In this document: positions 3,426 to 52,403 of the stretch, in pieces
Numbering within the stretch: position 1 is the first letter of the stretch
Layout: each line of letters begins with the position of its first letter
Assembly (NCBI GenBank): GCA_036498725.1
Contig: DASYEY010000083.1
Coordinates: 21,674-85,673 of the forward strand
Origin: Verrucomicrobiia bacterium
GTDB taxonomy: Bacteria > Verrucomicrobiota > Verrucomicrobiia > Limisphaerales > UBA11358
Reading direction: 5' to 3'
Length of the DNA: 64,000 nt
Position numbers and translations under genes: made by a program
The notes under the pieces: generated by a model
Databases searched by the model: none
What the model was told of the DNA's origin: nothing
What the model saw: only the letters and a program-made list of their open reading frames with translations

Positions 3426-3464
3426 AAAATGATTGAGTTGGTTAAAAATTGTCGAAACGTTTGC

Positions 3465-25111: not shown

Positions 25112-25891
25112 TTACCAATTGGCTTTCGTCAAAAAACTCTGCTGGGCTGCGGTGATCACCCCAAGATCCTGTTGCCAAAAATATAATTGTTCTGTGTTGT
25201 CTGGCATTGCTCCCCAGATATGCAGATACATCATCACCCCTTTGGTCTTGATCCACCGCGCTGAACCATCAATGAACACTTCGTTGCCGCCGGCCGGAAA
25301 ATTTCCCGCATCTTTATGCGCCGGCAGACTGGACCAGCCGGAAGCGTCCACGGGATGGCTCCAACTGTTATTAACTTTCGCCACCAAATCAGCCGCCAGC
25401 ATCCAAGTGGGATTTGACAGCGATGTCTTGACCGGGCTGGCAGACTTAACACCCGCTGGAAATGCGTTATTATACCAGGTCGTTATTCCGCCATAGTACT
25501 GGTAGCCAATGTAATATTGATTGCCGGGATTATTATTCGGAAAATTCGGAATAGCCGTGCGATCAGGACAAGTCCAGATGCTGGCGGAATTAGATTGCGA
25601 AATGGAGAGCCCCAAACTGTTCCAGATATCAACGGAAATATCATTTGTGTTCACTTGCAGCGGGAAGAGATTCTTACTGGCTGGCGGCACATAGTCCTTG
25701 TTGTCAGTGGCATAGACCAACGCCGCAACGCCAATCTGCCTTAGGTTGCTTACACAAAGAATGCGTTTGGCGTGTTCTTTGGCCCGGGCTAAAGCCGGCA
25801 ACAGCATGGCCGCCAAAATGGCTATAATCGCAATCACCACCAACAACTCAATCAGCGTAAAACCGCTCCGTTGTACATTTGTCCTACTCAT
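25112..25891 (-). CDS. DUF1559 / prepilin-type N-terminal cleavage-methylation domain protein
   Basis: The start is ATG 25891. '[30 protein letters not shown]' is the class III signal. The C-terminal '[15 protein letters not shown]' is an HX9DG-like end. It starts 17 nt after the upstream giant gene. Confidence 0.85.
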
Positions 25892-29487: not shown

Positions 29488-29608
29488 TTGGTTGCTTTTG
29501 ATCTGGATTTTTGGCCGGTTTATCCCATCTAACTTTTCAGATGTAAATAGGTGGCTGTGAATTTGTTTGGATTTGTCAGTACCTTAGCTTCACCTGCCGG
29601 CTCCGTAA

Positions 29609-29628
29609 ATACCCTCAAATGAGGGTAT
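29609..29628. promoter_or_regulatory. Palindromic candidate operator (copy a): ATACCCTCAAATGAGGGTAT
   Basis: It is a perfect 8-2-8 palindrome about 130 nt upstream of the P1 start, between the RR1 stop and P1. Copies b and c are at 34814 and 37832. Confidence 0.5.
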
Positions 29629-29884
29629 TTTTGAGGAGTGGCCTCGTCAGGTCCAGCACGTGAAATGAGGCAACTGGAAAGCGGCGGACTTAACCTTGCC
29701 GGGTTGAAGGTAATTTTCCAGAGCGCGGGAACCGGCGGCAAATGCTCTGATTTGGTGGGTTGACTATCCGTCGTTTACGCCAAAGCCTCAATCGTCTGAC
29801 CGGCGCTCCGTTGAGAATTTGTTCCGCGCGGATAAAACGAGCTGTCGCGAGCCGCCGCGCAACTGATTCCACCCAACCTCGTTA

Positions 29885-30619
29885 CTATGCTCCGCCGCTG
29901 GCAATTTTTTCCCGCGTGTTATCGACCTCCGATACGGAACCGGCCGAACGGTTTGCGGTGTAGCGCATGACCGCTTCCGTGCGACAGTGGACATGCAGTT
30001 TTTCATAGACCGTTTTCAGGTAGCTGCGCACAGTTTCGATACTCAGACGCATCTGGTCGGCAATCTCCTTGTTTGATAAGCCGCGCGACAACAAATCCAG
30101 CACCTCAATTTCGCGCGTGGATAAATGCGCCTGATTGCGTGGATTGGCCGGCGGCCGGCGGAATGAACGTACCACACGCCAGGCGATGGCGCTGCTCATC
30201 GGCGCGCCACCGTCCAGCACATCCACGAGAGCCGTCCGCAGATCCACCGGTTTTGAACGCTTGAGCAAATACCCGTCTGCGCCAGCCTCCAACGCGCGAA
30301 AAATCAATTCATCGTCATCTAATACGGTTAGAATGATAATGGGCGTCGTCGGCAATAATTCCTTTAGCCGCGAGGTGCACTCAATGCCTGACATGCGTGG
30401 CAGACGGATATCCATCAAGATCACATCCGGCCGCGCTTCGGGTATGGCAGCCACCGCTTCCTCGGCTGACGCACACGTGCAGGTGCACTTGAATCCCTCG
30501 AATGATTCGATGATTTGCACCCAACTTTGACATAAATCTTTTTGATCCTCCACCAAGGCCACACTGATCGTGACCGCAGCGTCAGATTTGACGGGAATGT
30601 TTTTCGAAAGCGATTTCAT
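29885..30619 (-). CDS. NarL/LuxR-family response regulator (RR1)
   Basis: The REC domain includes 'DVILMDIRLPRMSG' and 'ADGYLLK'. The GerE HTH is 'LSTREIEVLDLLSRGLSNKEIADQMRLSIETVRSYLKTVYEKLHV'. Confidence 0.9.
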   Translation of the reverse strand: MKSLSKNIPVKSDAAVTISVALVEDQKDLCQSWVQIIESFEGFKCTCTCASAEEAVAAIPEARPDVILMDIRLPRMSGIECTSRLKELLPTTPIIILTVLDDDELIFRALEAGADGYLLKRSKPVDLRTALVDVLDGGAPMSSAIAWRVVRSFRRPPANPRNQAHLSTREIEVLDLLSRGLSNKEIADQMRLSIETVRSYLKTVYEKLHVHCRTEAVMRYTANRSAGSVSEVDNTREKIASGGA

Positions 30620-30657: not shown

Positions 30658-32154
30658 TCATCCAATTATCTTCTCAGGTGAAGTAACCGCGTCGCTGCGG
30701 CTGGCAAAGCTGGCCGGGGAACGATCCTGATTTCGCGCCTGAAACAGCGACCTAAAGAATGACGGTTGTCTCAATGGCACTTGAAAGGCGACGCGGCAGC
30801 CTTCGCCCGGCTGGCTGATCACCCGGCAATCGCCGCCAATTTCCGCCATCCGCAGTTTCATATTGGTCAAACCATTCCGCTCCTGGCTCGCCTGAGCGGC
30901 AACAAAACCGCGGCCATTATCAGCCACGATGACATTCAACCGGGAACCGTTCAGCTCAATTTGCACGGTTAGTTCGGTGGCTTCCGAGTGTTTCACCGCG
31001 TTGTTGAGGGCTTCTTTTATTGCCAGAAACAGATTGCGGCGCGTGAACTCGCTCAAAGTTTTTGCCGGCAACTCCCGCGGTATTTTGAACCGGCAACGGA
31101 TCGGCGAGGATTCCAGAAAATGTTGCGCGTATTTGCAGGCATAGATGACAAAATCCTCCACGTTGTCATGTTGCGAATTGACGATCCAGACCACTTCGTC
31201 AATCGTCGCCAGGATGTTGCGCGCGCTATCGCACATTTGTGACAGCGTCGTGCCGGGTACGGATTCAATTTGCGCCACTTCACCGGTCAACAGCAATTGC
31301 GTCAGCTTGGAGCCGAGATCATCGTGAATATCGCGCGCAATCCGGTCGCGCTCGGCTTGCACCAGGTGATGGGCTTTCGACTGGCTCAAAAGCTGGATCA
31401 AAAGATAAATGCAAATGAGAACAAAAATACCGCAACCAACCATCAGGCCGATTTGAAAATCACGGCTTAGCCAGACTGGAATCGGTTGCGGAAGCTCCTC
31501 GCGGATATGGAGCACCGACGTCGGAACCGCCCACCACGGCACCCTCCCAAAATTGGCGGCGACCGAGGCATCCGGCCAGTCAGCGGCCGGGTGCCGGGCG
31601 GTTTCCCAATTATTGTCCGAATTGGGCACCACGCGCCAGGTCGTATCGGAACGGATCTGCATCAACTGACCGTCGGCCATCTCCAGGCGCAGGCCCAGGA
31701 TGATGCCCGCCTGTTCGTTGTCATTAAAACCTTCCACCGCCAGCACATGCGTGCCCGGACGCAAGGTGCCTTGCAAATGATAAATGCTCAACGTCCGCCA
31801 ATCACTGCCGCCACCGAGTTCCTGACCATCCAGCCAGATTTTGAACGCATTGTCCCCGGCGATGCGCAATTCGGCGCGAACCACCGGATTTGTTTTGGGA
31901 ATGATAAAGTTATCCCATAACCGGACGGTTTGTTTGTTGAGCGTGACCTTGTCCCAAATCCAGATGCCCAAACCATTGGTCACTTCTGGCTCAGATTTTG
32001 CCACGTAAATTGTGGGATAATTGCTGACGACGACGGTTGAATTTTCGTCGGCCCGGGCCGGGACAAAACTTATTACCAGACAAAACAGGAGCCCAGCCAC
32101 GCATTGGCGGAATTTCTCACGTGCTCCGGCGGGTTTTGGAAAGTGCAAATTCAC
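30658..32154 (-). CDS. Sensor histidine kinase (HisKA_3/NarX-DesK type) with extracytoplasmic galactose-binding-like beta-sandwich (HK1)
   Basis: It has an N-terminal signal/TM segment. The sensor region is 'AELRIAGDNAFKIWLDGQELGGGSDW...GTHVLAVEGFNDNEQAGIILGL', followed by the TM 'IGLMVGCGIFVLICIYLLIQLL'. The H-box is 'RIARDIHDDLGSKLTQL', followed by an HATPase domain. Confidence 0.85.
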   Translation of the reverse strand: MNLHFPKPAGAREKFRQCVAGLLFCLVISFVPARADENSTVVVSNYPTIYVAKSEPEVTNGLGIWIWDKVTLNKQTVRLWDNFIIPKTNPVVRAELRIAGDNAFKIWLDGQELGGGSDWRTLSIYHLQGTLRPGTHVLAVEGFNDNEQAGIILGLRLEMADGQLMQIRSDTTWRVVPNSDNNWETARHPAADWPDASVAANFGRVPWWAVPTSVLHIREELPQPIPVWLSRDFQIGLMVGCGIFVLICIYLLIQLLSQSKAHHLVQAERDRIARDIHDDLGSKLTQLLLTGEVAQIESVPGTTLSQMCDSARNILATIDEVVWIVNSQHDNVEDFVIYACKYAQHFLESSPIRCRFKIPRELPAKTLSEFTRRNLFLAIKEALNNAVKHSEATELTVQIELNGSRLNVIVADNGRGFVAAQASQERNGLTNMKLRMAEIGGDCRVISQPGEGCRVAFQVPLRQPSFFRSLFQARNQDRSPASFASRSDAVTSPEKIIG

Positions 32155-32233: not shown

Positions 32234-34735
32234 TTACGGATAACCCGCCATCGGGCTTGGGGATATTTCCGTCGAGTGAGCCGGCACAATATGGCGCAAC
32301 TGAATCGCCTGATTACCGGGGCTCGCCTTTCGCGCCTCAACGGTGTGGCGGGTTGGCGGGGTGCGAAACCGGTTGTCCACTTCCAAGGGGTCGGTGCCGG
32401 CGATAAACTCCGCATAATTACTCTCGCCATCGCCATTCGCATCTGCCGCCGGACCGGCGACGGCCAGATTCGCCGCGTTGGTGCCAAACCAGCCGGCGGC
32501 CCAGTTCGCGTAAAGCGTCGCGGGCGAAGGCGAATTAGTTGTGCTCAACCAAATCGCGTGCTGCCCCGCCCCGACATTGGTGACGACAAGACAATTGTTC
32601 GAAATCGTTCCCGGAAAAACCGTACCGTCCACCAATGCCACCGGATTTGCCGAACCAAGCGTTGGCAACATCACCGTCGCGGTAACATTGCCGGGGATAT
32701 TCAACAGCAGTTGAAAATTTCCCGGCGCGTTGTTTACTGAAATTCCTACAGGTCCGCGAATCGTCGGCACCATGCCTGCCGCGTGAGTCAAAGTCTTGCC
32801 CAGCTGTGGTTGGATGAGAATTTGCCCAAAGCCGGCGTTGAGCGGCCGCAGCCCCAGAATGAAGCGTGAAATTAAATTGCCCGGCGCGGCGCCCCAGGCA
32901 TGGTTCCAATCCATATTTGGTTTGTCGGTAAAATTCCAGGCTTCGGCCGTAAGCGTCGAGCCGAGATTGATGATGTTCAGCCAGCTGCGCGGACCATCGC
33001 TAGTCATCAGCGCCAGGGCGCTGTCGGCATCGCCGGCATTAAACAATGCTTCCACTAAATACTGGGCGCCATAGACACTGCAGGGCATGCCGTCATTGGC
33101 GGCGATGCGCGAGTGAAGAAAATTGACGACTGCGGCTTGCCGGTTCGCGGGCACGAGGCCGAAGGCGAGCGGGAAAAAATTTCCATGCGCGGACGCGTGA
33201 TCCGTGCCCACGCCGTCCCGGTAACATTGCCTGGCGGCATCCCAAAACGTCGCGTTATAAGCAGTATAAACCCGTCCGGCATCAGCGGTATAAGCTGCCG
33301 CGTCCTGCGTCCGGCCAAGCGCGGTGGCGATTTGGGCCATGATCTGCAAACTGCGATAATAAAAAGCGTTGTTGACGGAATTGGTCCAGTTCCGATAACT
33401 CCCGCTTTTGATCACGAAACCGTCGCGGTCGTTAAAGGGCCAGTCTACGACGTCGGAATTGCTGGTTTGGGGAAAGCCTGGAAAGCCCCTCATCAAACCA
33501 CTGCCGGTCGCCGCCCAGGTAAACGAGTTTGTTTGCAGACGCGGGTAATACTGGCTGATCAGATTGGTATCGCCCGTCTGGAGATAATCGGCCCACGCCA
33601 TGAAAACAGTGTGAAATTTCCATTCGGTGGGCCAGGTCGGATGTTGCAACAGATATTCAGCACTGTGGCGCGGCAATGTAAATTCCCGATCCACCGCATA
33701 CGAACTCAACTGGTGAATGTAGGAATCCGCCTCGTATGGTTTGCGCTCACGTTCACCGTCCACGTAAATGCCGTCAAAAGTAAGCATCTGCATCGAGTTG
33801 CGACACAGGTTCCAAATCTGATTTAGGGCTGTGCTTGAGCTGTGGAAACTTGCCGCATTGGTGTTGAAACAAGAAAGCAGCCGCATTTGCCTGACATCCG
33901 CGGAAGTGATCACGCCCGGAAAATTAATGAATTCAAGATATCGGAAGGGCATGATTGCGCCGCAACCGGCTGGCTGGATGGCTTCGGCCGAATATGAAAG
34001 TTCCGGCGGACGGATGGCATACGTGGTATTGCCTTCCGCCACATTGAACGTGGTATTCGTGTATCGCACCATGCTGCCGGGCGGCGGCGTCTGGCTGACA
34101 GCCAAACCGTTGGACATTTCTCCAAAACGCACTTCGACGGTGATGGGATTAAAGGCACCGTTCATATGCACCTGCGCATAACCAAAAGCGTCCTGCCCAA
34201 AATCTACAAACCATCGGCCCGGGGCGGTATTGGTAACCAACACCGGGGCGGCGGCGATAAAATTTAACGGATAGCGGCCGGCAAAAGCGTTGGTCGCCGA
34301 CCCGGTGATGAAATGTTGTATCGCTGAAAACGGGCTGATTTGCCCGGCACTATCCGCTGTTTGCACCCGCCAAAAAAAATCTGCGCCGATGGCCAGCGGC
34401 CGGCCGGAATAAGTCGCATTGATGGAAGTAGAATGGCTGGTCCAGCCCGAATCCCAAACATCACCCACCCCGGCCTCGGCCAGGGTTTGACTCGACGCGA
34501 CGATGATGCGGTAACCGCTTTGCGCATCATTGCGGAAAGATGGCTCGTAAATCCAACCGAATCTAGGCGCTGTGTTTGTGATAACGGTTTCTTCCGGATG
34601 CTCTAATAAATCACAGAGCAAACCAGTCGGCGAATTGGCGGCGCGGGAAAGCGACGACAAGGTCAAACTGAGTATGCAAAGCAACCAAAACGAGTTCATT
34701 GCCACAGTATTTACTGCTCGCCTGAAATTGCCCAT
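32234..34735 (-). CDS. GH78 alpha-L-rhamnosidase, secreted
   Basis: 'LLCDLLEHPE..VI....PRFGW', 'YRIIVASS' and 'DWNHAWGAAPGNLISRFILGLRP...GF' are GH78 blocks. The C-terminal motif is 'DANGDGESNYAEFIAGTDP'. The start may be the ATG at 34699. Confidence 0.9.
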   Translation of the reverse strand: MGNFRRAVNTVAMNSFWLLCILSLTLSSLSRAANSPTGLLCDLLEHPEETVITNTAPRFGWIYEPSFRNDAQSGYRIIVASSQTLAEAGVGDVWDSGWTSHSTSINATYSGRPLAIGADFFWRVQTADSAGQISPFSAIQHFITGSATNAFAGRYPLNFIAAAPVLVTNTAPGRWFVDFGQDAFGYAQVHMNGAFNPITVEVRFGEMSNGLAVSQTPPPGSMVRYTNTTFNVAEGNTTYAIRPPELSYSAEAIQPAGCGAIMPFRYLEFINFPGVITSADVRQMRLLSCFNTNAASFHSSSTALNQIWNLCRNSMQMLTFDGIYVDGERERKPYEADSYIHQLSSYAVDREFTLPRHSAEYLLQHPTWPTEWKFHTVFMAWADYLQTGDTNLISQYYPRLQTNSFTWAATGSGLMRGFPGFPQTSNSDVVDWPFNDRDGFVIKSGSYRNWTNSVNNAFYYRSLQIMAQIATALGRTQDAAAYTADAGRVYTAYNATFWDAARQCYRDGVGTDHASAHGNFFPLAFGLVPANRQAAVVNFLHSRIAANDGMPCSVYGAQYLVEALFNAGDADSALALMTSDGPRSWLNIINLGSTLTAEAWNFTDKPNMDWNHAWGAAPGNLISRFILGLRPLNAGFGQILIQPQLGKTLTHAAGMVPTIRGPVGISVNNAPGNFQLLLNIPGNVTATVMLPTLGSANPVALVDGTVFPGTISNNCLVVTNVGAGQHAIWLSTTNSPSPATLYANWAAGWFGTNAANLAVAGPAADANGDGESNYAEFIAGTDPLEVDNRFRTPPTRHTVEARKASPGNQAIQLRHIVPAHSTEISPSPMAGYP

Positions 34736-34813
34736 CCCCGCAAACGGGTGTAGTTAAATTAACCTGTCGCCAGCCCTGCCACCATGAGCGGCCGGCCCAC
34801 ACATCAAGGTCTA

Positions 34814-34833
34814 ATACCCTCGTTTGCGGGTAT
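34814..34833. promoter_or_regulatory. Palindromic candidate operator (copy b): ATACCCTCGTTTGCGGGTAT
   Basis: It lies in the divergent intergenic region between GH78 (minus, start 34735) and the PEP-CTERM lectin gene (plus, start 34939). Confidence 0.5.
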
Positions 34834-34938
34834 GTACAATATTACTTCGCACAGCTAAAAATTGAATATTCACTGGTTCCATTGGTTAAAAATGAAATCA
34901 GCCATATCAGATCAAAACCCAATCAAAAATAACCTCCG

Positions 34939-35727
34939 ATGAAACTTACCTTGAAAATATTCCTGACCGGAATCGCTGCCGCGTTCACCTGTTCAACGGT
35001 GAACGCCCAAATTGTCTATTCTAATAACTTCAGCCTGGGAGCCGCGATAAACATTAACGGAACGGCGCCTACGTTGGCCAACGCTTATGCCGGCGGCTCC
35101 AGTTCGGCAGTTTGGAACAGCGTGACGGGAACCCACGATTTGAATGCCTCATTGGCTAACGGCACCGTTGACACCTCGCAAAACACCGTCCTGTTACCGT
35201 TCTCACCGCAATCCGGTTACATCTATAAATTGATCGCTTCCGTGACTTTTACCAGCAGCCCGGGAAGCTGGGTCAGCATGGGTTTTGCGGGCGCCAATCC
35301 AGTCAATCAAACCTCAGCGCGATTCGCTGACAGCTCGGTAAATGGCATTGATTGGATGATCGCCAATCCCGCCACCGCCAATGAGCAGTTTTTTGCCGGA
35401 CCCAAAACGACGCCAGCCGCCGGCATTGGCAGCCAGAATCTAATGAATGGATTGGGAACTTATACGATAAGCGTGGAGCTGGATACGATGGGTCCTAAAT
35501 GGGAGATATCTTCGTTTATCAATGGCCTTCAGCTGGGAACAAACTTTACCTATAGCGCCAACCCAACGATCGTTGCCGTTGGCTATGGTCAAAACACCTT
35601 GACGAGTGGCAGCGGGGTTCACTGGAACTCTTTGGATCTGCTCGCAGAAACGCCTGAACCCTCCACGCTGGCCTTGACGGGGCTGGGACTGGTTGGTGTT
35701 TATAGGTTCCGGCGGAAACAAAAATAG
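34939..35727 (+). CDS. PEP-CTERM-anchored single-domain member of the 'QIVYSNNF' family
   Basis: It has a signal peptide, then '[31 protein letters not shown]' and 'LLPFSPQSGYIYKLIASVTFTSSPGSWVSMGFAG'. The C-terminus 'PEPSTLALTGLGLVGVYRFRRKQK' is a PEP-CTERM sorting signal. Confidence 0.85.
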   Translation: MKLTLKIFLTGIAAAFTCSTVNAQIVYSNNFSLGAAININGTAPTLANAYAGGSSSAVWNSVTGTHDLNASLANGTVDTSQNTVLLPFSPQSGYIYKLIASVTFTSSPGSWVSMGFAGANPVNQTSARFADSSVNGIDWMIANPATANEQFFAGPKTTPAAGIGSQNLMNGLGTYTISVELDTMGPKWEISSFINGLQLGTNFTYSANPTIVAVGYGQNTLTSGSGVHWNSLDLLAETPEPSTLALTGLGLVGVYRFRRKQK

Positions 35728-35877: not shown

Positions 35878-37812
35878 ATGGTTAAAAAAATATTGTTGGC
35901 AGGCATCTTGATGGCATGCACCCCGGCTGGGGCGCAAATTATTAATTCCCATGCGTTTGAAGGCGGCCCGGCCAAAGCCAACCCGGCCAGCCAATTGACC
36001 TCGCCTGATGGCCGCTTGGTTTTGACGTTCGCCGTTAGTAATTTTGATGGTTCAGCGAATTGCCCGGTCTATTGCCTGACTCGGAACGGACAAACGCTCA
36101 TCTCCACTTCAAAGTTGGGCCTGACGTTTGGCAACAGCGGCTCGTTGCAAAATCATTTGGCCGTTTTGAGTGTGAGCACCAGGGCTAACGATAGTCTCTG
36201 GCAACCGGTGTATGCCGAGAAAAGCCAGATTCGTGACAATTACCATCAACTGGTCGTGAATTTGCGGGAGCTTGCGCCGCCCCAACGTTTGTTACAGCTA
36301 ACCTTTCGCGCTTACAATGAAGGCGTAGCTTTCAACTACACTATTCCAGCGCAGGCCGGAATGGGGGACGTAACCAATCTGATGGAGCAGACAGAATTTC
36401 GCTTTGACGCCGATCATCCAGCGTGGGCCACTTACACGGCCCAAGGCGTATATGCCAAAACCACCATCAATCACATCGCCAGTGGCTGTGAACGCCCGTT
36501 GACAGTCCAACTGGCGACGAACCTATATGTAGCGCTCGGCGAAGCTGGATTGGTGGATTATGCCCGGATGAAATTCGCTCCGCTCCCGAAAAGGCCGCAC
36601 TCTCTGGTGAGCTTGCTTGACGGCCCGGTCGCTGCTTCTTTGCCTCTAACCACGCCGTGGCGATTCATCATGGCCGCCGACCATCCTGGTCAACTTCTGG
36701 AAAATGATTTCTTCGTCCTGAATCTAAACGCTCCGTGCGCCCTGACCAACACAACATGGATTAAGCCGGGCAACGTGATTCGTGAAACGACCTTGAAAAC
36801 CGCCAGCGGCAAGGCATGTGTTGATTTTGCCGTCAAACATAATATTCAATACATTGAGTATGACGCTGGCTGGTATGGGCCGGAAAATAAAACGCTTACC
36901 GCCACCAACGCCATTGCTTCGCTGGATCTGCCGAGCGTCATCCACTATGCCACATCAAACCACATCGGCGTAATCCTGTACGTCAACTGGAAGGCCATGA
37001 CCAATGAATTATCCCTGCTACCGCCGCTTTACCGTAGCTGGGGTGTGAAAGGCATCAAGTATGGGTTCGTAAGCGTCGGCCCGCAATGGGATACCGCCGT
37101 TGTGAACGCTGCCGCGCGTATCTGCGCCAGCAACCAGATGATGATGGAAGTGCATGATGAATTTCGTCCATCCGGCTACACGCGGACCTACCCTAACTTC
37201 ATGTCAGTGGAAGGTGTCAGTGGCGATGAAACCAAGCCGACCACAACTCAGGACTTGACCCTGCTCTTTTCCCGCATGTTAGTCGGCGGCGCCGACCATA
37301 CCGTTTGCTACTTTGAATCCCGGGTCACCAACAAATGGAGTTATGCCTATCAATTGGCCAAGGCCGTCTGCTTCTACAGTCCGTGGCAATATCTTTATTG
37401 GTACGACCGTCCGCCTAATTCCTATGGCTATACCAGCGGCGGCAATGCGATGATCACGGAGGTGCCGGAAATGGAGTTTTATGATCATTTGCCGAGCGTT
37501 TGGGATGAAACCCGGGTATTGCAAGGCAGCATTGGCCAATACGCCATCATCGCCCGGCGCACCGGCACGCAATGGTTCATCGGCGCCATGAACGCAGGCA
37601 CGACGCGCACTTTTAGTGTGCCGCTAAACTTTTTGCCGCCCGGACTGAAATACACCGCGAACATTTATTCACAGGACCCATCGGTGCCAACGCGCACGCA
37701 TGTCCACATCGAACGTTTGGCGGTGGATTCCACGGCGACCTTGACCATGGTTTTGGATGCTTCACGCGGTGAGGCTATCTGGCTGTTTCCGGCCGATTCT
37801 CCGGCCCGGTAA
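35878..37812 (+). CDS. GH97 glycoside hydrolase (alpha-glucosidase/alpha-galactosidase family)
   Basis: 'IQYIEYDAGWYG', 'WGVKGIKYGFV' and 'HDEFRPSGYTRTYPNFMSVEGVSGDE' match GH97 conserved blocks. It has a signal peptide. Confidence 0.8.
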   Translation: MVKKILLAGILMACTPAGAQIINSHAFEGGPAKANPASQLTSPDGRLVLTFAVSNFDGSANCPVYCLTRNGQTLISTSKLGLTFGNSGSLQNHLAVLSVSTRANDSLWQPVYAEKSQIRDNYHQLVVNLRELAPPQRLLQLTFRAYNEGVAFNYTIPAQAGMGDVTNLMEQTEFRFDADHPAWATYTAQGVYAKTTINHIASGCERPLTVQLATNLYVALGEAGLVDYARMKFAPLPKRPHSLVSLLDGPVAASLPLTTPWRFIMAADHPGQLLENDFFVLNLNAPCALTNTTWIKPGNVIRETTLKTASGKACVDFAVKHNIQYIEYDAGWYGPENKTLTATNAIASLDLPSVIHYATSNHIGVILYVNWKAMTNELSLLPPLYRSWGVKGIKYGFVSVGPQWDTAVVNAAARICASNQMMMEVHDEFRPSGYTRTYPNFMSVEGVSGDETKPTTTQDLTLLFSRMLVGGADHTVCYFESRVTNKWSYAYQLAKAVCFYSPWQYLYWYDRPPNSYGYTSGGNAMITEVPEMEFYDHLPSVWDETRVLQGSIGQYAIIARRTGTQWFIGAMNAGTTRTFSVPLNFLPPGLKYTANIYSQDPSVPTRTHVHIERLAVDSTATLTMVLDASRGEAIWLFPADSPAR

Positions 37813-37831: not shown

Positions 37832-37851
37832 CTACCCTCAATTGCGGGTAT
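37832..37851. promoter_or_regulatory. Palindromic candidate operator (copy c): CTACCCTCAATTGCGGGTAT
   Basis: It lies about 140-150 nt upstream of the probable TTG start (37994) of P2. Confidence 0.45.
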
Positions 37852-37936
37852 GGACGCTTATTATTCCGGCAATAAACTTGAGTTGCATTGATTTCTGCCC
37901 GATTACAATGTTGCAATGAGGATTTAATCTCTGGAA

Positions 37937-40762
37937 TTGATATTCCGATGCCAATCAAGGTGGCGTCCGCTGCAAATCTCTGGCTCAACTGATTTGAAAA
38001 CAATTAGAAATTTGCTGTTGGCAGGTATTTTAGCGGCGTACATGAGCACCTCAGCTGAGGCGCAAATCGTCTATTCCAACATCTTTGACGGCGGAGCAAT
38101 AACGCTTAACGGAACGTCCCCCACGGTGGCTAAAAACATCGCAGGCGGCAGCGGCTCCGCACATTGGATTTGCACGTTAACCAACGGTGTGGATGGCACT
38201 ATCCTGGCCGATGGTACCGTGGCCACCAACGCAGGGTGCGCCCTGCTGCCCTTTACCCCGCGGGCAGGCTGTATCTACCTGATGACAGCTTCGCTCACTG
38301 TTCCTGCCGGCATGGGCAACTGGGTCGCCATGGGCTTTTCCCAAAATGCTGGTCAGACGAATAATCCGGGTTATGCGCGATTCACAGACACGCCCAACGG
38401 CTATGCCTGGAGCAGTGCGCGGACCGGCAGCAATGATCAATTATTTGGCGGACCAAAAACCCAGGTCGGCGCAACCCCGCTGATCAATGCCCTCCCCGGC
38501 GCAGGGACATATACATTGGAAATTGTCCTGAATACATTGGGCATTAAATGGACGGCAGCAGCCTACGTCAATGGCATCGTCACCGGTACGAACGTGATTG
38601 GCGGCACGCAAATCGGCACCAATATCGTGTATGGCACGACTCCAAACATTGGATTTGCCGGCATCGGCCAAACCACTTTCGCCAACTTGTCCACCACCGG
38701 AATCCAATGGAACTATTGGTCGCTTTCGGTCACGCAAGTGCCAAACCTTACCAATAGCTATTGGGTAGCCCCAACCGCCATTGGCAGTGGTGATGGTTCT
38801 TCTGCCGCCAATGCGGCGAGCTATCGGACTGCCAGCTTTTGGACGGGCGTTCAGAGCCAGCTTAATGGCGTCCAGGTCATCGTTAATTTTGTCAATGGCA
38901 CATACAACGCAGGAAATCTGGTCCTGGCGGACATGGGCGATCCACTGCATCGGTTGACCCTCCAAGCCGCCAATCGGTATGGGGCGATTTTGTCCCCCAG
39001 CAGCAACGATATTCTCGAATTAACCGGCACCCAGAATATCGGGTTGGACGGTTTTGTATTCACTGGCAAGACTCCGTATTGGGGGATTCTCTGCCAGCCA
39101 GACATCTGGCAACCCACCCGCAATCTCGGCATTTCCAATTGTAAATTTCAAGACTTAACCAATGCCTACTATGGCGCCATTGGATTGCTGAACGGCACCC
39201 GAGATGTCACATTCAATAATTGTACTTTTACCAACCTGGGTTACGGCACCAGCGGCACCGCCCACTTCATCTATGGCTCACACGACATCGTAGGTGTTCA
39301 GGTGTTAAACAGTTCGTTTGCCGATTGCCGGGCGGATTATGTGCGATTCAGGGACGATTCGGAATATTGCACAATCAGCAATTGCACGTTTCTCTCTACC
39401 ATCAGCGCCACGACCTTTCCGTTCATCACGTCGCCATTGTTCAATTCCATTGACCCGGGTCCGGGCGACGAATTTTTCGGAACCTATTTCCAGATCACCA
39501 GCAATTCATTCGCATACAATGTCTCGGCTGGCATACGGGCCGCGCTGCAATTCAGCGACACCGGCTACGATCCGCAAGGCTACGATTGCGCGCTGACGCC
39601 GACACAAGCCAGCCAGTTGAGCAATGGCAGCACCAGCTTCAAGCAATCGTTTCTGCAAACGAACCTGGGCATCATTGCGTCGGGCATCAAAATGTTTGGT
39701 AACACCTTCAACTCGCGGGTGAGCTATCACGTGGCCTATACCTACAATTATTCGAGCAGTGCCACCGGCGCGCCGCAGAATGGTTGGACGGGAACCATTG
39801 ATATTTCGGATGTGCCGGACGCCAGCGGTGCATTATTAGCCTCACCGATGTTGCGCAACGCCGACTTCGACCGGATCGGACTCCTGAAAATGCCGGTGGA
39901 TTCGAGCACTCCCAATGAATGCTTGTTTCGCACGTGGCTATGCAATCCCAAGTACGCCAGCATCCTCTGGCATCCAGGTTTTAACGGAACGAGCAACGCG
40001 ATGCTCTTTAACAAGACCGGCAGTCAATCCATCTACCAATGGATCGGCCATCCGGCAACGCAATGGACCATGGATTGCCTGTTCGCAATCGGCTCTGGCT
40101 TTACTGGCAGCGGCGTTAAATTCAAAATTGATTTATTTCACAACGACATCACCGGTGGCAAAATTTCTGTCGGCGTGGACAATTTAGGGCGCTTTGGAAT
40201 CTATAATGGCGGCAGTTTTACTGTTCTGCCCCAATTAGGAATGGTGACCTTCTCCGTGGATAATAACGGTAATAGTTATTACAACGATCCGGGCGACACG
40301 TTGAATGTTTACCGCCTGCGCCTGGTTGGCGATTATTCGTCCGATACTCCGCAGCTGAATATCTACGCCAGCGATGCCAACTCCATGGAATTAAACCACC
40401 AAGTCTTGGGATTGACCGACTGGGTCAATGACGCTCCGGTCAGCGGCCAATCAACACCCAGCACGGTGGCTTTTTATAATTACACCGCACCAGTGGTTCT
40501 GGATCAAGTTGCCTTCAGCGCCGGTCTTGGAGAACAGCCGCCGATCATCCAACAGATCTCGACTAGTGGCAGCAATTTCATCTTCTCCGGGACAAATGGA
40601 TTTCCGGGAGACACCTATTATCTAATGTCCTCGACCAATCTGACTTCAGGTCTTTGGACCATGAAAGCCACCAACATCATGGATACGAACGGCAATTTCT
40701 CTGTTACCAATAGTATCCTGCCGGGAACATTACAGCAGTTTTATCGTTTGCAGTTACAGTAA
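37937..40762 (+). CDS. Large secreted protein P2
   Basis: The likely true start is the in-frame TTG at 37994, giving the signal peptide '(M)KTIRNLLLAGILAAYMSTSAEA' by analogy with its paralogs. The N-terminal domain spans about 38060-38735. The middle region ('NCKFQDLTN', 'NNCTFTNLG', 'LNSSFADC', 'SNCTFLS') suggests a beta-helix. The protein ends 'QQFYRLQLQ'. Confidence 0.75.
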   Translation: MIFRCQSRWRPLQISGSTDLKTIRNLLLAGILAAYMSTSAEAQIVYSNIFDGGAITLNGTSPTVAKNIAGGSGSAHWICTLTNGVDGTILADGTVATNAGCALLPFTPRAGCIYLMTASLTVPAGMGNWVAMGFSQNAGQTNNPGYARFTDTPNGYAWSSARTGSNDQLFGGPKTQVGATPLINALPGAGTYTLEIVLNTLGIKWTAAAYVNGIVTGTNVIGGTQIGTNIVYGTTPNIGFAGIGQTTFANLSTTGIQWNYWSLSVTQVPNLTNSYWVAPTAIGSGDGSSAANAASYRTASFWTGVQSQLNGVQVIVNFVNGTYNAGNLVLADMGDPLHRLTLQAANRYGAILSPSSNDILELTGTQNIGLDGFVFTGKTPYWGILCQPDIWQPTRNLGISNCKFQDLTNAYYGAIGLLNGTRDVTFNNCTFTNLGYGTSGTAHFIYGSHDIVGVQVLNSSFADCRADYVRFRDDSEYCTISNCTFLSTISATTFPFITSPLFNSIDPGPGDEFFGTYFQITSNSFAYNVSAGIRAALQFSDTGYDPQGYDCALTPTQASQLSNGSTSFKQSFLQTNLGIIASGIKMFGNTFNSRVSYHVAYTYNYSSSATGAPQNGWTGTIDISDVPDASGALLASPMLRNADFDRIGLLKMPVDSSTPNECLFRTWLCNPKYASILWHPGFNGTSNAMLFNKTGSQSIYQWIGHPATQWTMDCLFAIGSGFTGSGVKFKIDLFHNDITGGKISVGVDNLGRFGIYNGGSFTVLPQLGMVTFSVDNNGNSYYNDPGDTLNVYRLRLVGDYSSDTPQLNIYASDANSMELNHQVLGLTDWVNDAPVSGQSTPSTVAFYNYTAPVVLDQVAFSAGLGEQPPIIQQISTSGSNFIFSGTNGFPGDTYYLMSSTNLTSGLWTMKATNIMDTNGNFSVTNSILPGTLQQFYRLQLQ

Positions 40763-41394
40763 CTCTCCGCGGCATTCGGTTTTCCACACACCTAATCTAA
40801 TTGTGGGGCGCATTAGGATTCGCCATTGATACCCCTCAACAAGAACCTGCGTTACCCAATGAATGGACCTTTATGCGTTTAGATTATCTAATCAAGCGAA
40901 ACTTAGACGACTTGGACGGTATCATTGCAACCACTAATGGATGGTCTTTGATATTGCAGAGTGCTTTACCATGGTTATTGAACCATATTAATTATTCCGC
41001 AAAACACTGCTTGCTTGGAAATACATGTTTTGAGTCTTGCTGAACAAGGTTTGGCGGCGGCATTACAACTTTTGCAAAGGCCTCATAATATAGTCCAATT
41101 GACCGATTGTGAGGTTGATCGGAGCTTACTACTATCTAAATAGTGCGTTACGCAGCGCCATTCCATGGCGCGGCCTTGGCTCAACCATATCAAGACAGTG
41201 ATGCTGCATTGTGAAATCATATCGGGCTTGGCATGAATCCCACCCAAAGATGGACGCTCAGATACGTGCAGTCTCGCCCAAACGAGCGTGATCCGTTCAG
41301 GATTGACGATGGAACGGTTATTCCAACTTAAAACCGCCAAGGACAAATCAATCGATTTTCGCGTCTGATGTGATCCCAACAAATAAAGAAATAA

Positions 41395-42243
41395 ATGATG
41401 TCATTCATCCAGAATTTATCGTGGCAGAGTTGTAAAAAGCACCGGGCATTTACATTGATCGAACTACTGGTAGTCATCGCCATCATCGCCATACTGGCCG
41501 CCTTGCTTCTCCCCGCTTTGGCGAAAGCCAAGCTACAGGCTCAAAAGGCGGGCTGCCTAAACAATCTTAAACAACTAAATCTTGCCTATCGTATGTACCA
41601 GGATGACTTCAAGGGAAACGGGGTAGATTACTTCGATGCTAATGGACACAATGCCTTATGGATGGGATCACTTTCCTCTTACTATGGCGCGGCGCATCAA
41701 ATCGTATTTTGTCCAACCGCGCCGACCCGCAATAATTTGACGACATCCAAGGGCGACGCCAAATCCACTTGGCAGTGGACGGCCAACGATATCAACTACG
41801 ACTATGGAAGTTATTCAATCAATGGATGGCTTTATGGTGATTCGCCCATTTCCGGAGGGACTACGACGGTGAATCCGGCGGGGTATTTTGTGAAGGAAGC
41901 AGCCGTTACATCCCCATCCCTCACGCCTGCATTCTTTGACAGTATCTGGGTGGACGCATGGCCTTCCGTGACGGATTTACCAAGCATTAATCTTGACCTC
42001 ATCAGTGGTTCGCCCGGGGTGGATCTCCCGCCGAATCAGAATGAATACGACCGTTTGCTTATTGCGCGTCATCCACTGAAACCTGGCAGGACGATCTATA
42101 ACCAACCGATCCCAGGCCAAATTGAAATGTCCTACGTTGATGGTCATGCCAGCACACTCAAGTTGGAGGACGTCAAAACTGTTTATTGGTGCAAGGGCTG
42201 GCCCGGGACCATCGCAAATCCTTGGCAAACAAAAGGCCCCTGA
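41395..42243 (+). CDS. DUF1559 / prepilin-type N-terminal cleavage-methylation domain protein
   Basis: It has '[34 protein letters not shown]' and the C-terminal '...[14 protein letters not shown]'. Confidence 0.85.
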
Positions 42244-42245
42244 AA

Positions 42246-45227
42246 ATGAACTCATCACAACCTGCAACCCATCAAACTCCTCTCTCTATGAAATTAAAAT
42301 CAAATGTCCCGGGCATGGCAGCCCATATCTTCCCTTATCTCCTGGCTTTGGCTGGGGTGCTGGGGATGGCGAATGCCGGTCGCTCTCAAATTGTTACCAA
42401 CGGGAGTTTTGAACTACCGGGGAGTGCGACTGGCAATTATACCGTGACGTTTGGAACGTTACCAACGGACTACATAACTGGTTGGGTTTTGGGAACTTCT
42501 GGTGCGGCGTATGGAAATGGAAATGCTTACGATGGCATTTGCGCCACTGACAATCCCAGCCTTAACGATGGGAATATTGAGGACGGCACAAATTGCATCT
42601 ATTTACAGGGAGGCAATGCGGCAACGATCGTCACCTTAAGCACGGGTTCCTACACGCTATCCTTCTGGGCCATGGGACGCACCGACACGGGCGCGGCGAA
42701 CCCGGTTGCGGTGACAGTGGGAACCGCCGCTGGAAATATTTTTTCCAACACCGTGGCCCCGGGCAATACGGGCCAAAAAGTGTTGGCCGACTGGATTCAA
42801 TATCTCTTTAATTTTAACGCGCCAAGCAATGGCAGCTACCAGCTAACATTCAAGGCGATGCTACCGTATGGCCCCAGTGGTGATCACACAACTTTCATAG
42901 ACAATGTTTCGATCACTGCCGGGGGCATTCCGCCCTCCTTTATCAGCCAGCCAACTCCCGAAGAAATGATTTACGCTGGTGGAACCGCGCACTTCTCCGC
43001 TCAGGTCACTGGTTCACCGACACCGTCCTATCAATGGCAGGTCGAATCCAACGGCGTCCTCGTCAATTTGAATAATAGCAGCCGAATTTCGGGTGCCACC
43101 AATGAGACACTCACGATCAACAATCTGGTCCCGGAGGATGCCACCAACTACATTTTACAGGCGTCTAATACGTCCAGTTCGACGAATAGTTCCATGGCGC
43201 AATTGGTAGTGTTGCCTGCGCCGGCTGACGGCAGTTATGACGGCGCCGTCTTGGCCGACAACCCTGCGGCCTATTATCTGTTGAACGAGACCACTGACCC
43301 GAGTTCTGGAACGGCGGTGGCATTCGATTTTGCCAGTGGATTCAATGGTATCTATGGCGGTTCCATGCTAAACGGCTTCGACGGCATAGTTGGCCCCATG
43401 CCTTCGGATGGATTTTCGGGTTTTTCGACCACCGACTCTGCCGCGCTCTTTCCTTCTCCGAGCGGAGAAATTACCCTGGCTCCCTGGGAGCTGAATACCA
43501 ATACAGTCACTTTCACTGCCTGGATATATCCTATCGGGGTGCAGAACCCATCTGCCGGCCTGCTTTACATTGTGGGTGGTTCGGACGGATCGGGATTTAA
43601 TTTTGACGCAAACGGGAACGTGGACGTCAACGGAAACAGCACCTTGGGCTATACTTGGAATTATGACGGAGGCACTTATGGTTGGAATTCCGGCATCGCA
43701 CCTCCTCAATTCCAGTGGTCGTTCGTCGCATTGGTTGTCACGCCCAGCAATGTGACCCTCTATATCTTCAATACCAGCGGCGTTTTAATTGCGAGTCAAA
43801 ACCATAGCCATCCGGTCGAGCCGTTTTCAGCAGCGCCTCAATTTGGATTCTTTCCTGGCCAGCCAAACAATGACGCATTTAATGGCTCCATGAACCATGT
43901 GGCCATCTTCGGCCAGGCGTTAAGCGGGCTTCAGATTGCGGACCTTTACGCCGCCGCCGCCGGAACCGCGCCGCCGGTTCCACCCTACTTTACCACCCAG
44001 CCTACACCCCAGGCAGAAACTCTCTATGCCGGTGAAACTGTACGCCTTTCGGCCCAGGCAGCTGGCATACCGACACCCGCCTATCAATGGCAGATAGAAT
44101 CCAACGGCATCTTTGTCGATTTGAACGACAGCGACCGGATTTCTGGCACCACAAGCTCGACGCTCACAATCAGTAATTTAGCGGCCGGGGATGCCGGCAA
44201 TTACCTTCTGAATGCCAGCAACACCTACGGTTCGACCAACAGCTCCATCGTGTCATTGACTGTGATGCCCCCGCCGCCAGCTGGCAGCTATGCCAGTGCT
44301 GTCATGGCTTTGAATGCGCGTGCCTATTACGAGTTATCTGAGACCAATGACCCAAGTGGCGGACAGGCTGTGGCCTATGATTATGTCGGCGGATATAACG
44401 GTGTTTATGGCACGGACGTGCAAAATGGCTTTAACGGTGTGTTCGGCCCGCTGCCTTCGGAAGGTTTTCCGAAATTTCCAACCAATAATGCGGCGGCAAG
44501 TTTTATCAATACTGGCAACGCCGACTCAAATTCAGCAATCACCTTGACTCCATGGCAACTAAACACCAATACAGTCACCTTCACTGCCTGGATTAATCCG
44601 ACCGGGTTGCAGACGGGTTACGCCGGCTTGATCTATGTCATTGGCGCAGATGGCTTGGGTTTTAACTTCTGTCCGCCGGGTGCCACGAACGCCAGCGGCA
44701 ATCAGGACTTGGGCTATAGTTGGAATTACGACTTAAATACTTTCAGGTGGGATTCCGGCATCGCGCCCCCGCCCGGCCAGTGGTCGTTAGTGTCGTTGGT
44801 CATCACTCCGACCAACGCAATCGTCTCTATTATGAACACCAACGGCACTTTATCTGCGACCAACACCCCCGTCGGAGGCCACGCTGTGGAACCGTTTTCA
44901 TCAACGACCCAATTTGGTTTCTTCCCCGGAATCGGAGATTCAACATATAATTACAACGGCTTGATGGATCACGTGGCGATCTTCGGTCAAGCGTTGAGTG
45001 CGAATCAGATTGCGGCATTGTATGATACTGCTTCCGGCATAGCCCTAACAGTCACGCTCAGCGCGGTTTTGAGCGATGGGCAGGTAATTTTGAATTGGAA
45101 TGGCAGTGGGCAACTTCTCCAGGCCCCCAGTCTTACGGGCCCATGGACAACGAATTCAGCTGCCACGCCGCCGTACCAGGTGACACCTTCAGCGCCGCAA
45201 ATGTTTTACCGAGTGCTGGTCCAATAG
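42246..45227 (+). CDS. Giant secreted protein P3
   Basis: The start is ATG 42246 or 42288; the ORF track's 42186 start overlaps the previous gene. The N-terminal domain includes 'IVTNGSFELPG...NIEDGTNCIYLQGG...YTLSFWAMGR'. Two ~350-aa units each carry 'YQWQ.ESNG' Ig and 'VTFTAWI.P' LamG blocks. The protein ends 'QMFYRVLVQ'. Confidence 0.8.
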   Translation: MNSSQPATHQTPLSMKLKSNVPGMAAHIFPYLLALAGVLGMANAGRSQIVTNGSFELPGSATGNYTVTFGTLPTDYITGWVLGTSGAAYGNGNAYDGICATDNPSLNDGNIEDGTNCIYLQGGNAATIVTLSTGSYTLSFWAMGRTDTGAANPVAVTVGTAAGNIFSNTVAPGNTGQKVLADWIQYLFNFNAPSNGSYQLTFKAMLPYGPSGDHTTFIDNVSITAGGIPPSFISQPTPEEMIYAGGTAHFSAQVTGSPTPSYQWQVESNGVLVNLNNSSRISGATNETLTINNLVPEDATNYILQASNTSSSTNSSMAQLVVLPAPADGSYDGAVLADNPAAYYLLNETTDPSSGTAVAFDFASGFNGIYGGSMLNGFDGIVGPMPSDGFSGFSTTDSAALFPSPSGEITLAPWELNTNTVTFTAWIYPIGVQNPSAGLLYIVGGSDGSGFNFDANGNVDVNGNSTLGYTWNYDGGTYGWNSGIAPPQFQWSFVALVVTPSNVTLYIFNTSGVLIASQNHSHPVEPFSAAPQFGFFPGQPNNDAFNGSMNHVAIFGQALSGLQIADLYAAAAGTAPPVPPYFTTQPTPQAETLYAGETVRLSAQAAGIPTPAYQWQIESNGIFVDLNDSDRISGTTSSTLTISNLAAGDAGNYLLNASNTYGSTNSSIVSLTVMPPPPAGSYASAVMALNARAYYELSETNDPSGGQAVAYDYVGGYNGVYGTDVQNGFNGVFGPLPSEGFPKFPTNNAAASFINTGNADSNSAITLTPWQLNTNTVTFTAWINPTGLQTGYAGLIYVIGADGLGFNFCPPGATNASGNQDLGYSWNYDLNTFRWDSGIAPPPGQWSLVSLVITPTNAIVSIMNTNGTLSATNTPVGGHAVEPFSSTTQFGFFPGIGDSTYNYNGLMDHVAIFGQALSANQIAALYDTASGIALTVTLSAVLSDGQVILNWNGSGQLLQAPSLTGPWTTNSAATPPYQVTPSAPQMFYRVLVQ

Positions 45228-45248
45228 CCTCATTTGGTGGAAAAATCG

Positions 45249-45286
45249 TAACGGGCAGTCACGAGGAAATTCTGACTGCCCGTTTT
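45249..45286 (+). terminator. Rho-independent terminator after P3
   Basis: The 12-bp stem aacgggcagtca / tgactgcccgtt has an 11-nt loop and is followed by ttt. Confidence 0.75.
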
Positions 45287-45409
45287 TGACATAATGAGAG
45301 TGGGAGAACGAGTTCAGACTAAGGTGGCCTTGTACTGCTGAAGATCAGTTATACCGGATAACTGCCGGACTGATCGTTGCCCTTAGTTTGACCGGCAGAA
45401 TTTATTTTT

Positions 45410-51733: not shown

Positions 51734-51773
51734 TTAACAGAACCATTGCAACCAGCAAACCTTCGATCACATT

Positions 51774-52403
51774 ATGACGAAGATCGCCATAGTCGAAGAC
51801 AACCCAGATATTCGCCAGTCCCTGACCGAATGGATCAATGCCGCTCCCGGCTATGAGTGCGTTTGTGCGTGCCCGAATTCAAAAACCGCCCTGGCACAAA
51901 TACCACGATTAAAACCGGATGTGGTGTTGATGGACATTCGCCTGCCAGACGAATCCGGCATAGTCTGCACCTCGCTCTTGAAGAGCCTGTTACCTGACTT
52001 GCAAGTGATTGTTCTAACCGTGTATCGGGATCGCGACTTGCTATTTCAGGCACTCAATGCCGGCGCTAGCGGCTATCTACTAAAGCGTTCCAAGCCAGCC
52101 GACGTGTTGAATGCCATTGCTGAAGTCCTGTCGGGCGGCGCCCCCATGACGGGGGAAATTGCGCGCATGGTCATCGAAACCTTCCACGGGCCGGCAACCA
52201 AGAGACAAGGAGAGCCGGGGCTTTCCGAACGCGAAAATGAAATCCTTCTTCTCGTATCAAAAGGGCTGGGCAACAAGGAGATTGGAATAAAATTAAACAT
52301 CAGTTATTACACCGTGCGCGCCCACTTACGTAAGATTTACGAGAAACTGCATGTCCACGGACGGAGCGAAGCTGTCGCCAGAGCGATTCAGGGCAACCGA
52401 TAG
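51774..52403 (+). CDS. NarL/LuxR-family response regulator (RR2), paralog of RR1
   Basis: It has 'DVVLMDIRLPDESG', 'ASGYLLKRSKP' and the HTH 'LSERENEILLLVSKGLGNKEIGIKLNISYYTVRAHLRKIYEKLHV'. It is divergent from HK2. Confidence 0.9.
   Translation: MTKIAIVEDNPDIRQSLTEWINAAPGYECVCACPNSKTALAQIPRLKPDVVLMDIRLPDESGIVCTSLLKSLLPDLQVIVLTVYRDRDLLFQALNAGASGYLLKRSKPADVLNAIAEVLSGGAPMTGEIARMVIETFHGPATKRQGEPGLSERENEILLLVSKGLGNKEIGIKLNISYYTVRAHLRKIYEKLHVHGRSEAVARAIQGNR

Follow-up and report, generated by a model that had tools for sequence, protein, structure and literature searches.

A conserved palindrome as a probable response-regulator operator in polysaccharide-degradation loci of soil Verrucomicrobiia

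A repeated palindrome in a polysaccharide-degradation cluster

The 64,000-nucleotide stretch of Verrucomicrobiia contig DASYEY010000083.1 analysed here (the window) holds a polysaccharide-degradation cluster encoding a GH78 rhamnosidase, GH97, GH3, GH63-like and GH27 enzymes, a fucosidase and esterases, together with LamG/Ig proteins and prepilin-type proteins. Within this cluster a 20-bp palindrome, ATACCCTCAAATGAGGGTAT at 29609-29628 (copy a), has kin at 34814-34833 (copy b) and 37832-37851 (copy c) that differ from it by 2-3 mismatches, each upstream of a gene whose product carries a domain referred to here by its YSNNF motif. An earlier note on this DNA had singled out the palindrome and its two near-identical copies as a candidate NarL/LuxR-type operator; their coordinates hold, and in shuffled windows only 0.01 matches to the 20-mer with up to three mismatches are expected by chance. 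When no mismatch is allowed, the core TACCCNCNNNNGNGGGTA is found in the 64 kb at copies a, b and c only.

Copy a, on the minus strand, reads ATACCCTCATTTGAGGGTAT in the sense of its target gene (core 29627..29610), and its arms AAATACCCTC and GAGGGTATTT pair perfectly across 10 bp. Copy b, ATACCCTCGTTTGCGGGTAT, and copy c, CTACCCTCAATTGCGGGTAT, are on the plus strand; the former has one arm mismatch, a T opposite a C, and the latter starts 20 nt past the GH97 stop codon. A position weight matrix (PWM) trained on 13 sites, all from genomes other than that of the window, gives copies a, b and c, scored in gene sense, 33.6, 25.9 and 31.2 bits, respectively. All three have one polarity in gene sense, xATACCCTC-N4-G[AC]GGGTA-T[GT][GT]AC, with the TACCCTC arm on the left. 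The distance from site to start codon is 122 nt for copy a, 106 nt for copy b and 143 nt for copy c, in agreement with the 100-150 nt previously estimated, and all three genes encode the YSNNF domain. Beyond the palindrome and a short 3' flank with promoter-like hexamers, the three upstream regions cannot be aligned, so that the element is more than a piece of a duplicated leader.

The target of copy a is P1 (25909..29487, minus strand, ATG at 29487), a secreted protein of 1192 residues with two YSNNF-type domains, an Ig domain and a LamG domain, whose gene heads a long minus-strand run encoding a prepilin-like protein and glycoside hydrolases. Copy b precedes the gene of a 262-residue PEP-CTERM protein with a YSNNF domain (34939..35727, plus strand, ATG at 34939), followed by GH97 (35878-37812, plus strand). 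Copy c precedes the gene of a 922-residue secreted protein with a YSNIF variant (37994..40762, plus strand), the real start of which is the TTG at 37994 and not 37937; genes for a prepilin-like protein, a LamG/Ig protein and a GDSL esterase lie downstream. In all three products the signal peptide is followed by AQI[IV]YSN[NI]F, and an N-terminal domain of about 220 residues is common to them, with an additional internal copy in P1. The three targets were thus rightly grouped by this domain, for which the earlier label 'lectin-like' is not confirmed, there being no Pfam match; an AlphaFold2 model built on a four-sequence alignment had a mean pLDDT of 40 and was unusable. Both the P1 and the 922-residue protein genes are followed by genes with a prepilin-type N-methylation motif (25112-25891, minus strand, and 41395-42243, plus strand), a pairing that recurs in related loci. 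This association of YSNNF/LamG and prepilin-type proteins is reminiscent of the 'Verru_Chthon cassette' families, to which there are weak NCBIfam matches.

Kinase-regulator pairs and a probable fourth site

Two HisKA_3 / NarL-GerE kinase-regulator pairs, HK1-RR1 and HK2-RR2, are encoded in the window, and the previous statement that it contains two NarL-family regulators is borne out, both RR1 and RR2 being of the GerE type. RR1 (29885..30619, minus strand) is a NarL/FixJ-family response regulator with a receiver and a GerE helix-turn-helix whose recognition helix is IETVRSYLKTVYEKL, and is the proposed operator binder; copy a lies 256 nt 3' of its stop codon. The HisKA_3 histidine kinase HK1 (30658..32154, minus strand), the proposed sensor, has two transmembrane segments (about residues 17-35 and 234-256). 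These enclose a periplasmic domain of about 200 residues (about 36-232) similar to the N-terminal part of alpha-L-rhamnosidases of the Streptomyces type (NCBIfam NF041573, E = 4e-12). The HK1 gene adjoins that of the GH78 alpha-L-rhamnosidase Rha78 (32234..34699, minus strand; real ATG at 34699, signal peptide MNSFWLL...), which heads the Rha78-HK1-RR1 unit. The second pair consists of HK2 (48137-51733, minus strand) and its partner RR2 (51774-52403, plus strand), which is 51% identical to RR1.

The RR1 stop codon is followed after 22 nt by a hairpin of terminator type with a T-tract (29844..29863, minus strand), which probably ends the Rha78-HK1-RR1 transcript ahead of the P1 promoter. At the other end of this unit, a probable fourth and weaker operator, site d, is found at 34735..34752 on the minus strand (TACACCCGTTTGCGGGGA, 20.9 bits), followed by TGGGCA (34734..34729). 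It stands back-to-back with copy b and is directed towards the Rha78-HK1-RR1 operon, whose ATG at 34699 is 35 nt past the core of the site. This arrangement suggests autoregulation of the operon through a putative, nearly leaderless transcript. An ATG only 35-41 nt past the palindrome core is seen at site d and in two loci of other genomes, L017 and L019 (loci outside the window are numbered with the prefix L).

Promoter-like architecture adjoining the palindrome

Promoter-like elements abut the gene-proximal arm of each copy. At site a, a -35-like TTTACG (29604..29609, minus strand) is separated by a 17-nt spacer from a -10-like TAAGGT (29581..29586, minus strand), with a predicted start at about 29574 and a 5' untranslated region (UTR) of about 87 nt up to the P1 ATG at 29487. 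Site b has the corresponding elements at 34833..34861 on the plus strand (TGTACA at 34833-34838, 17 nt, TAAAAA at 34856-34861; predicted start about 34868), and site c has them at 37851..37878 on the same strand (TGGACG at 37851-37856, 16 nt, TAAACT at 37873-37878; predicted start about 37885).

The same register is seen across 36 non-redundant sites, in which the abutting hexamer is T[GT][GT]AC[GA], mostly TGGACG. A TAnnnT element follows 16-18 nt past this hexamer at 24 of the 36 sites, compared with 6 of 612 control windows (binomial P ~1e-39), and the sites that lack it nearly always have TAnnnA or TAnnnG at the same position. Among the 16 sites that had been chosen without a DNA pattern, TAnnnT is present in 12. 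Measured from the inferred transcription starts, the centre of the palindrome falls at about -44.5 (or -43.5). At the Escherichia coli ogt1052 promoter, one NarL site with its centre at -44.5 suffices for NarL-dependent activation (PMC9314961). Since the -35/-10-like pair lies 3' of the palindrome, the latter is probably outside the target transcript.

Two other promoter assignments were considered and rejected. A sigma-54 promoter (GG-N10-GC, TGGCAC-N5-TTGC) was considered by eye for TGGACGGGGCTGCT in L013 and L016, with TGGACG...TGC as its elements; the GC is 2 nt too close, and the other sites are without the pattern; it is further disfavoured because NarL-type regulators have no AAA+ domain, which sigma-54 promoters require. 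The central 'TTG' of the palindrome, a possible -35 element, is not an invariant directional feature, as L096 has AAAT in that orientation.

Recurrence in genomes and metagenomes

About 40 non-redundant loci, from metagenome-assembled genomes (MAGs) of soil Verrucomicrobiia and from metagenomes, contain the module, and where enough flanking sequence is available, a close RR1 homologue and a kinase are nearly always encoded in the locus of the site. A homology search of species-representative genomes with the YSNNF domain, in which the motif was not used, returned 33 loci from soil Verrucomicrobiia MAGs; the flanks scanned were 3 kb, too short in several loci to judge RR1 proximity. The site was found before P1-like or Pc-like genes in L013, L014, L015, L016, L017, L019, L020, L021 and L023, and these motif-bearing genes sit beside RR1, GH78 or GH97 orthologues. 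RR1 orthologues of 79-85% identity are immediately upstream in L013, L014, L016 and L020, and L023 has a site orthologous to copy c, between GH97 and the orthologue of the 922-residue protein gene. The motif was rejected as a general feature of YSNNF paralogs, being absent from L003-L012, L018, L022 and L026. The expectation of the earlier note that it would mark such paralogs is accordingly upheld for some of them only: many are without it, and it marks RR1-linked loci, where it also precedes targets of other kinds.

An exact-pattern scan of metagenome contigs, in which a TATKKAC flank was fixed, gave 58 loci, about 30 of them Verrucomicrobial. An RR1 homologue is encoded in at least 21 of the 58, with 47-88% identity and always nearer RR1 than RR2; its gene usually stops 2-40 nt short of the site and follows that of an HK1 homologue in most cases. 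In at least 16 of the 58 a YSNNF-domain gene starts 36-367 nt downstream of the site. Look-ups led by RR1 orthologues, again without use of the motif, found the site before a P1-like gene whatever the gene order, namely in L094 (convergent arrangement), L096/L097 (4 kb away), L098 and L099-101, amounting to five of six distinct loci. In addition, for a subfamily of regulators with 61-63% identity to RR1, the PWM places a further site some 47 nt ahead of the regulator gene's ATG in seven loci. In L040, L041, L054, L065, L066, L077 and L090 the gene is bracketed by one site in the spacer between kinase and regulator genes and another 2-17 nt past its stop codon. The targets of this subfamily are LamG-like proteins ('AGLxxPY...HLWHLD') or prepilin-type proteins, not YSNNF proteins. 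A weak PWM site also lies upstream of the GH78-kinase-regulator unit of L094. As judged from these comparisons of sequence, the site follows the regulator more faithfully than the YSNNF domain.

Several further occurrences stand apart. The remaining metagenome matches are unrelated; among them are a phage-like aquatic group and a psbA leader of cyanobacterial or phage origin. The aquatic group comprises about ten near-identical contigs (L045-L047, L052, L053, L064, L068, L071, L078 and L084) that carry CCTTATACCCTCGATTGAGGGTATTGACAAGGGTTA (for example, L071 at 3460-3482), in which the palindrome runs directly into a consensus TTGACA. These contigs are phage-like, with an apparent open reading frame for a terminase small subunit, and are without RR1, HK1 or YSNNF homologues. 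In L076 (11768-11945) a chance motif match immediately precedes a PhotoRC-II RNA (Rfam RF01717) and psbA, and is likewise unrelated. L028, from a distant Verrucomicrobiota MAG, has identical copies of TACCCATGTTTATGGGTA at 1695-1712 and 4291-4308, upstream of two consecutive genes, the first with a YSNNF-like domain; after each copy come TTGCGG, 16 nt and TA[CT]GCT. The half-site TACCCAT of these copies is an exact NarL heptamer, with a spacer that is still 4 bp. In L018 the P1-like gene that starts at 607 has another perfect palindrome, TCACCCGTTTGGGTGA (6-4-6), about 200 nt upstream, in the neighbourhood of a paralogous kinase that shares 43% identity with HK1; a sister two-component system may use this palindrome as its operator.

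A protein-binding site or another kind of element

Alignment of the sites gives the consensus TACCCnC-N4-GnGGGTA, in which arm positions 1-5 and 7 carry 1.1-2.0 bits and position 6/13 is free. The pair 6/13 is mismatched in 16 of 36 sites (44%), mostly as C.A or U.C and never preferentially as G.U. Such free, non-wobble mismatches point to two independently read half-sites and not to a stem under selection. The element is thus an inverted repeat of two short half-sites, spanning 18-20 bp, that is kept as sequence and not as structure. Its position abutting the -35-like hexamer, with a centre at about -44.5 from a start predicted from sequence, fits control of initiation. Furthermore, the site shares its locus with the gene of a cognate GerE-type regulator, an association seen from genome to genome. 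On these grounds we consider it very probable that the palindrome is a protein-binding operator.

It is, by comparison, highly improbable that the palindrome acts as a hairpin in RNA or DNA, whether as terminator or attenuator of the upstream gene (RR1 or GH97) or as a 5'-UTR stem-loop of the targets. When all three copies were folded on both strands, only copy a, with its stable 10-bp stem on either strand (z -3.4 and -4.4) and a T-rich 3' side on the plus strand, did better than shuffled sequence, whereas copies b and c, with a U.C or G.A mismatch, did not. Many copies do lie just past the stop codon of a regulator gene, as a terminator would, but the sense-strand T-tract is missing in most, with TGGACGG or TTTACGG as the flank, and the terminator scan listed none of the three copies. 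RR1 has its own terminator-like hairpin at 29863..29844, and copy a is not needed as its terminator. Moreover, copy b and the copies in L017, L019, L059, L070 and L093 lie between divergent genes, where there is nothing upstream to terminate; in L017 and L019 these are GH78 and P1-like genes, which excludes a terminator role there. A Rho-independent terminator was rejected for these reasons. A structured cis-regulatory RNA was rejected as well, given the non-wobble breaks at 6/13, and the palindrome copies match no Rfam family, the sole Rfam match in the window being a tRNA. A stem-loop within the target transcripts also conflicts with the -35/-10-like elements 3' of the palindrome.

It is barely credible that the copies were left by duplication of an upstream region, or belong to a dispersed REP/MITE-like repeat, and play no regulatory role. 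The three targets are paralogous and their upstream regions could have been copied with them, but these regions are unalignable outside the palindrome and the promoter-like hexamers, and many YSNNF paralogs are without the motif. The site is found in a fixed register with the -35/-10-like hexamers in about 40 diverged loci and several target families, and it also precedes non-paralogous regulator genes. The possibility raised in the earlier note, that the motif is merely part of a duplicated 5' UTR, is thus contradicted by a site whose sequence and position are preserved between unconserved flanks.

Probable identity of the regulator

RR1, and not RR2, is the likely binder of the palindrome. 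The site-associated regulators, down to 47% identity, have the recognition helix TVRSYLK in common, RSYLK being present in 114 of the 120 closest RR1 homologues, whereas that of RR2 is TVRAHLR. No like palindrome adjoins RR2 or is found in the intergenic regions 51700-51800, 45200-45430 and 40750-41400, which hold only a terminator-like repeat. This repeat, a perfect 12-bp inverted repeat (AACGGGCAGTCA / TGACTGCCCGTT) at 45250-45284, directly follows a LamG/Ig gene (42186-45227) and is probably a terminator. The strongest pointer to RR1-type proteins is the site before the regulator's own gene, which is a signature of autoregulation. The link that had been drawn between the two-component system and the YSNNF genes through a NarL/LuxR-type operator is supported in this form by the co-occurrence with RR1, though for RR1 rather than RR2 and not for all paralogs.

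A real operator that is bound by RR2 or by an unlinked regulator, or at which RR1 represses, is an unlikely alternative. RR2 is half identical to RR1 and likewise of the GerE type, and a site touching the -35 element could equally block RNA polymerase; the adjacent regulator, however, is nearer RR1 than RR2 in every informative locus, and no other regulator gene is recurrent across the loci with the site. As for the mode, the weak -35-like TGGACG/TTTACG and a centre at -44.5, which is compatible with NarL, favour activation over repression. That RR1 binds the palindrome and activates transcription therefrom is, in our judgement, probable.

Several observations weigh against this conclusion. 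One locus with an RR1 orthologue, L095, has no clear site within 10 kb, a finding that would also suit a different binder. The link between helix variants and site variants is weak and covers very few cases: the single RGYLK case, L016, has a symmetric A-to-C change in both arms, and the RTYLR cases have a canonical right arm and a degenerate left one. Co-variation was rejected on the latter, as RTYLR had been predicted to go with an L020-like site and the new loci showed the canonical right and degenerate left arm. Symmetric arm variants (TCCCCCC..GGGGGGA in L016, TGCCCTC..GAGGGCA in L023 and TACCCAT..ATGGGTA in L028, the last occurring twice in the same -35/-10 register) fit a homodimer whose specificity drifts between lineages, but, preserving the pairing, they also fit a hairpin. 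Site d is borderline, since shuffled windows peak at 20.5 bits against its 20.9 (2/20 shuffles). The conservation of the -35-like hexamer arises partly by construction in the pattern-selected sites, although it holds in 13 of the 16 others. TGGACG(G) is kept better than an ordinary -35 element and could be an extra protein contact and not a sigma contact. Finally, the -35/-10 assignment is sequence-based, and a generic sigma-70 scan makes no call at these promoters, which are too weak for its thresholds; the architecture emerges from the alignment of many sites.

Proposed mechanism and comparison with known systems

Altogether, the palindrome and its flank are most likely a conventional response-regulator operator with an activator-dependent promoter, conserved across uncultured soil Verrucomicrobiia. 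In the proposed mechanism, HK1 would sense a product from the degradation of a polysaccharide that contains rhamnose or galactose, and phosphorylate RR1; a carbohydrate is the presumed signal, which fits the rhamnosidase-like periplasmic domain of HK1. Phosphorylated RR1 would then bind TACCCnC-N4-GnGGGTA as a dimer, the palindrome serving as a double-stranded DNA operator. Placed at about -44.5 and abutting the weak -35 element T[GT][GT]AC, it would recruit or stabilise a sigma-70-type RNA polymerase in a class-II-like activation. Site a would switch on the P1 operon, site b the PEP-CTERM/GH97 unit and site c the unit of the 922-residue protein, while the weaker site d would probably act on the Rha78-HK1-RR1 operon itself, resulting in positive autoregulation. 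The identity of the binder, activation over repression, the start sites and the signal are inferred from sequence.

RR1 has the same architecture of receiver and GerE helix-turn-helix as NarL (NCBIfam NarL, E = 4e-34; PDB 1A04, E = 3e-24), but its 117 bits compare with a NarL equivalog cut-off of 250, which makes it a member of the family without being an orthologue of NarL. Among solved structures it is closest to VraR, DevR and NarL, and it falls far under every NCBIfam equivalog cut-off. Its operator shares with that of NarL/NarP the outer TACCC...GGGTA in an inverted repeat, presumably dimer-bound, and a position, that of a single site at -44.5, which is workable for activation (PMC9314961). 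The sites of the window are, however, 7-4-7 and not 7-2-7, each half-site being 1 bp further from the dyad, and positions 6-7 of the half-site are TC or CC and not MT, with TACCCAT and a 4-bp spacer in L028. The resemblance of TACCCTC to the TACYYMT heptamer, which had been pointed out before, thus extends to five of seven positions, and the spacer is 4 bp in every copy instead of 2, so that a strict NarL/NarP 7-2-7 site was rejected. The recognition helices also differ, with R-S-Y-L-K in RR1 against K-V-H-V-K in NarL, and the signal of the RR1 system is presumably a carbohydrate and not nitrate.

LuxR/TraR-type boxes are 18-20-bp palindromes that overlap the -35 element, the lux box being centred at about -42.5. 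They resemble the present sites in being palindromes of about 20 bp at a weak -35, bound by a dimeric GerE-type helix-turn-helix protein in class-II-like activation; the differences are acyl-homoserine-lactone ligands there against phosphorylation here, and unrelated box sequences.

The hybrid two-component systems (overview: PMC11253607) and SusR-type regulators of polysaccharide utilisation loci in Bacteroides follow the same logic as the proposed system, in that a periplasmic carbohydrate sensor encoded inside a glycan locus switches on neighbouring degradative and surface-protein genes. In the window, a two-protein kinase/regulator pair with GerE output takes the place of the one-protein hybrid with AraC-type output, and where SusC/SusD pairs are the targets in Bacteroides, those in the Verrucomicrobium are secreted LamG/Ig/'YSNNF' proteins and prepilin-like proteins.

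A broader interpretation, which we hold to be rather unlikely, is that the palindrome and the weak promoter form a portable 'RR gene - operator - promoter' cassette common to several paralogous kinase/regulator pairs of soil Verrucomicrobiia. The pairs sharing it may be 47-88% identical, with the same TVRSYLK helix and with different sensors and target genes.

Implications for glycan-gene regulation in Verrucomicrobia

In the literature searched, no description of such a motif or regulon for Verrucomicrobia was found, and little was found on the regulation of glycan genes in this group. The mechanism itself is conventional. What the locus adds is a concrete candidate regulatory unit for an uncultured soil lineage, made up of a rhamnosidase-like sensor kinase, a NarL-family regulator, an 18-20-bp operator and a conserved promoter architecture. 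The operator could be used for regulon prediction in MAGs, for promoter definition in the phylum and for inducible expression tools. If the cassette interpretation were true and a single genome held several paralogous pairs, these would have a common operator sequence and form a cross-wired polysaccharide-sensing network. If true, it would also provide a Verrucomicrobial counterpart of the Bacteroides hybrid two-component systems, with some transcripts, such as those of L017, L019 and site d, nearly leaderless.

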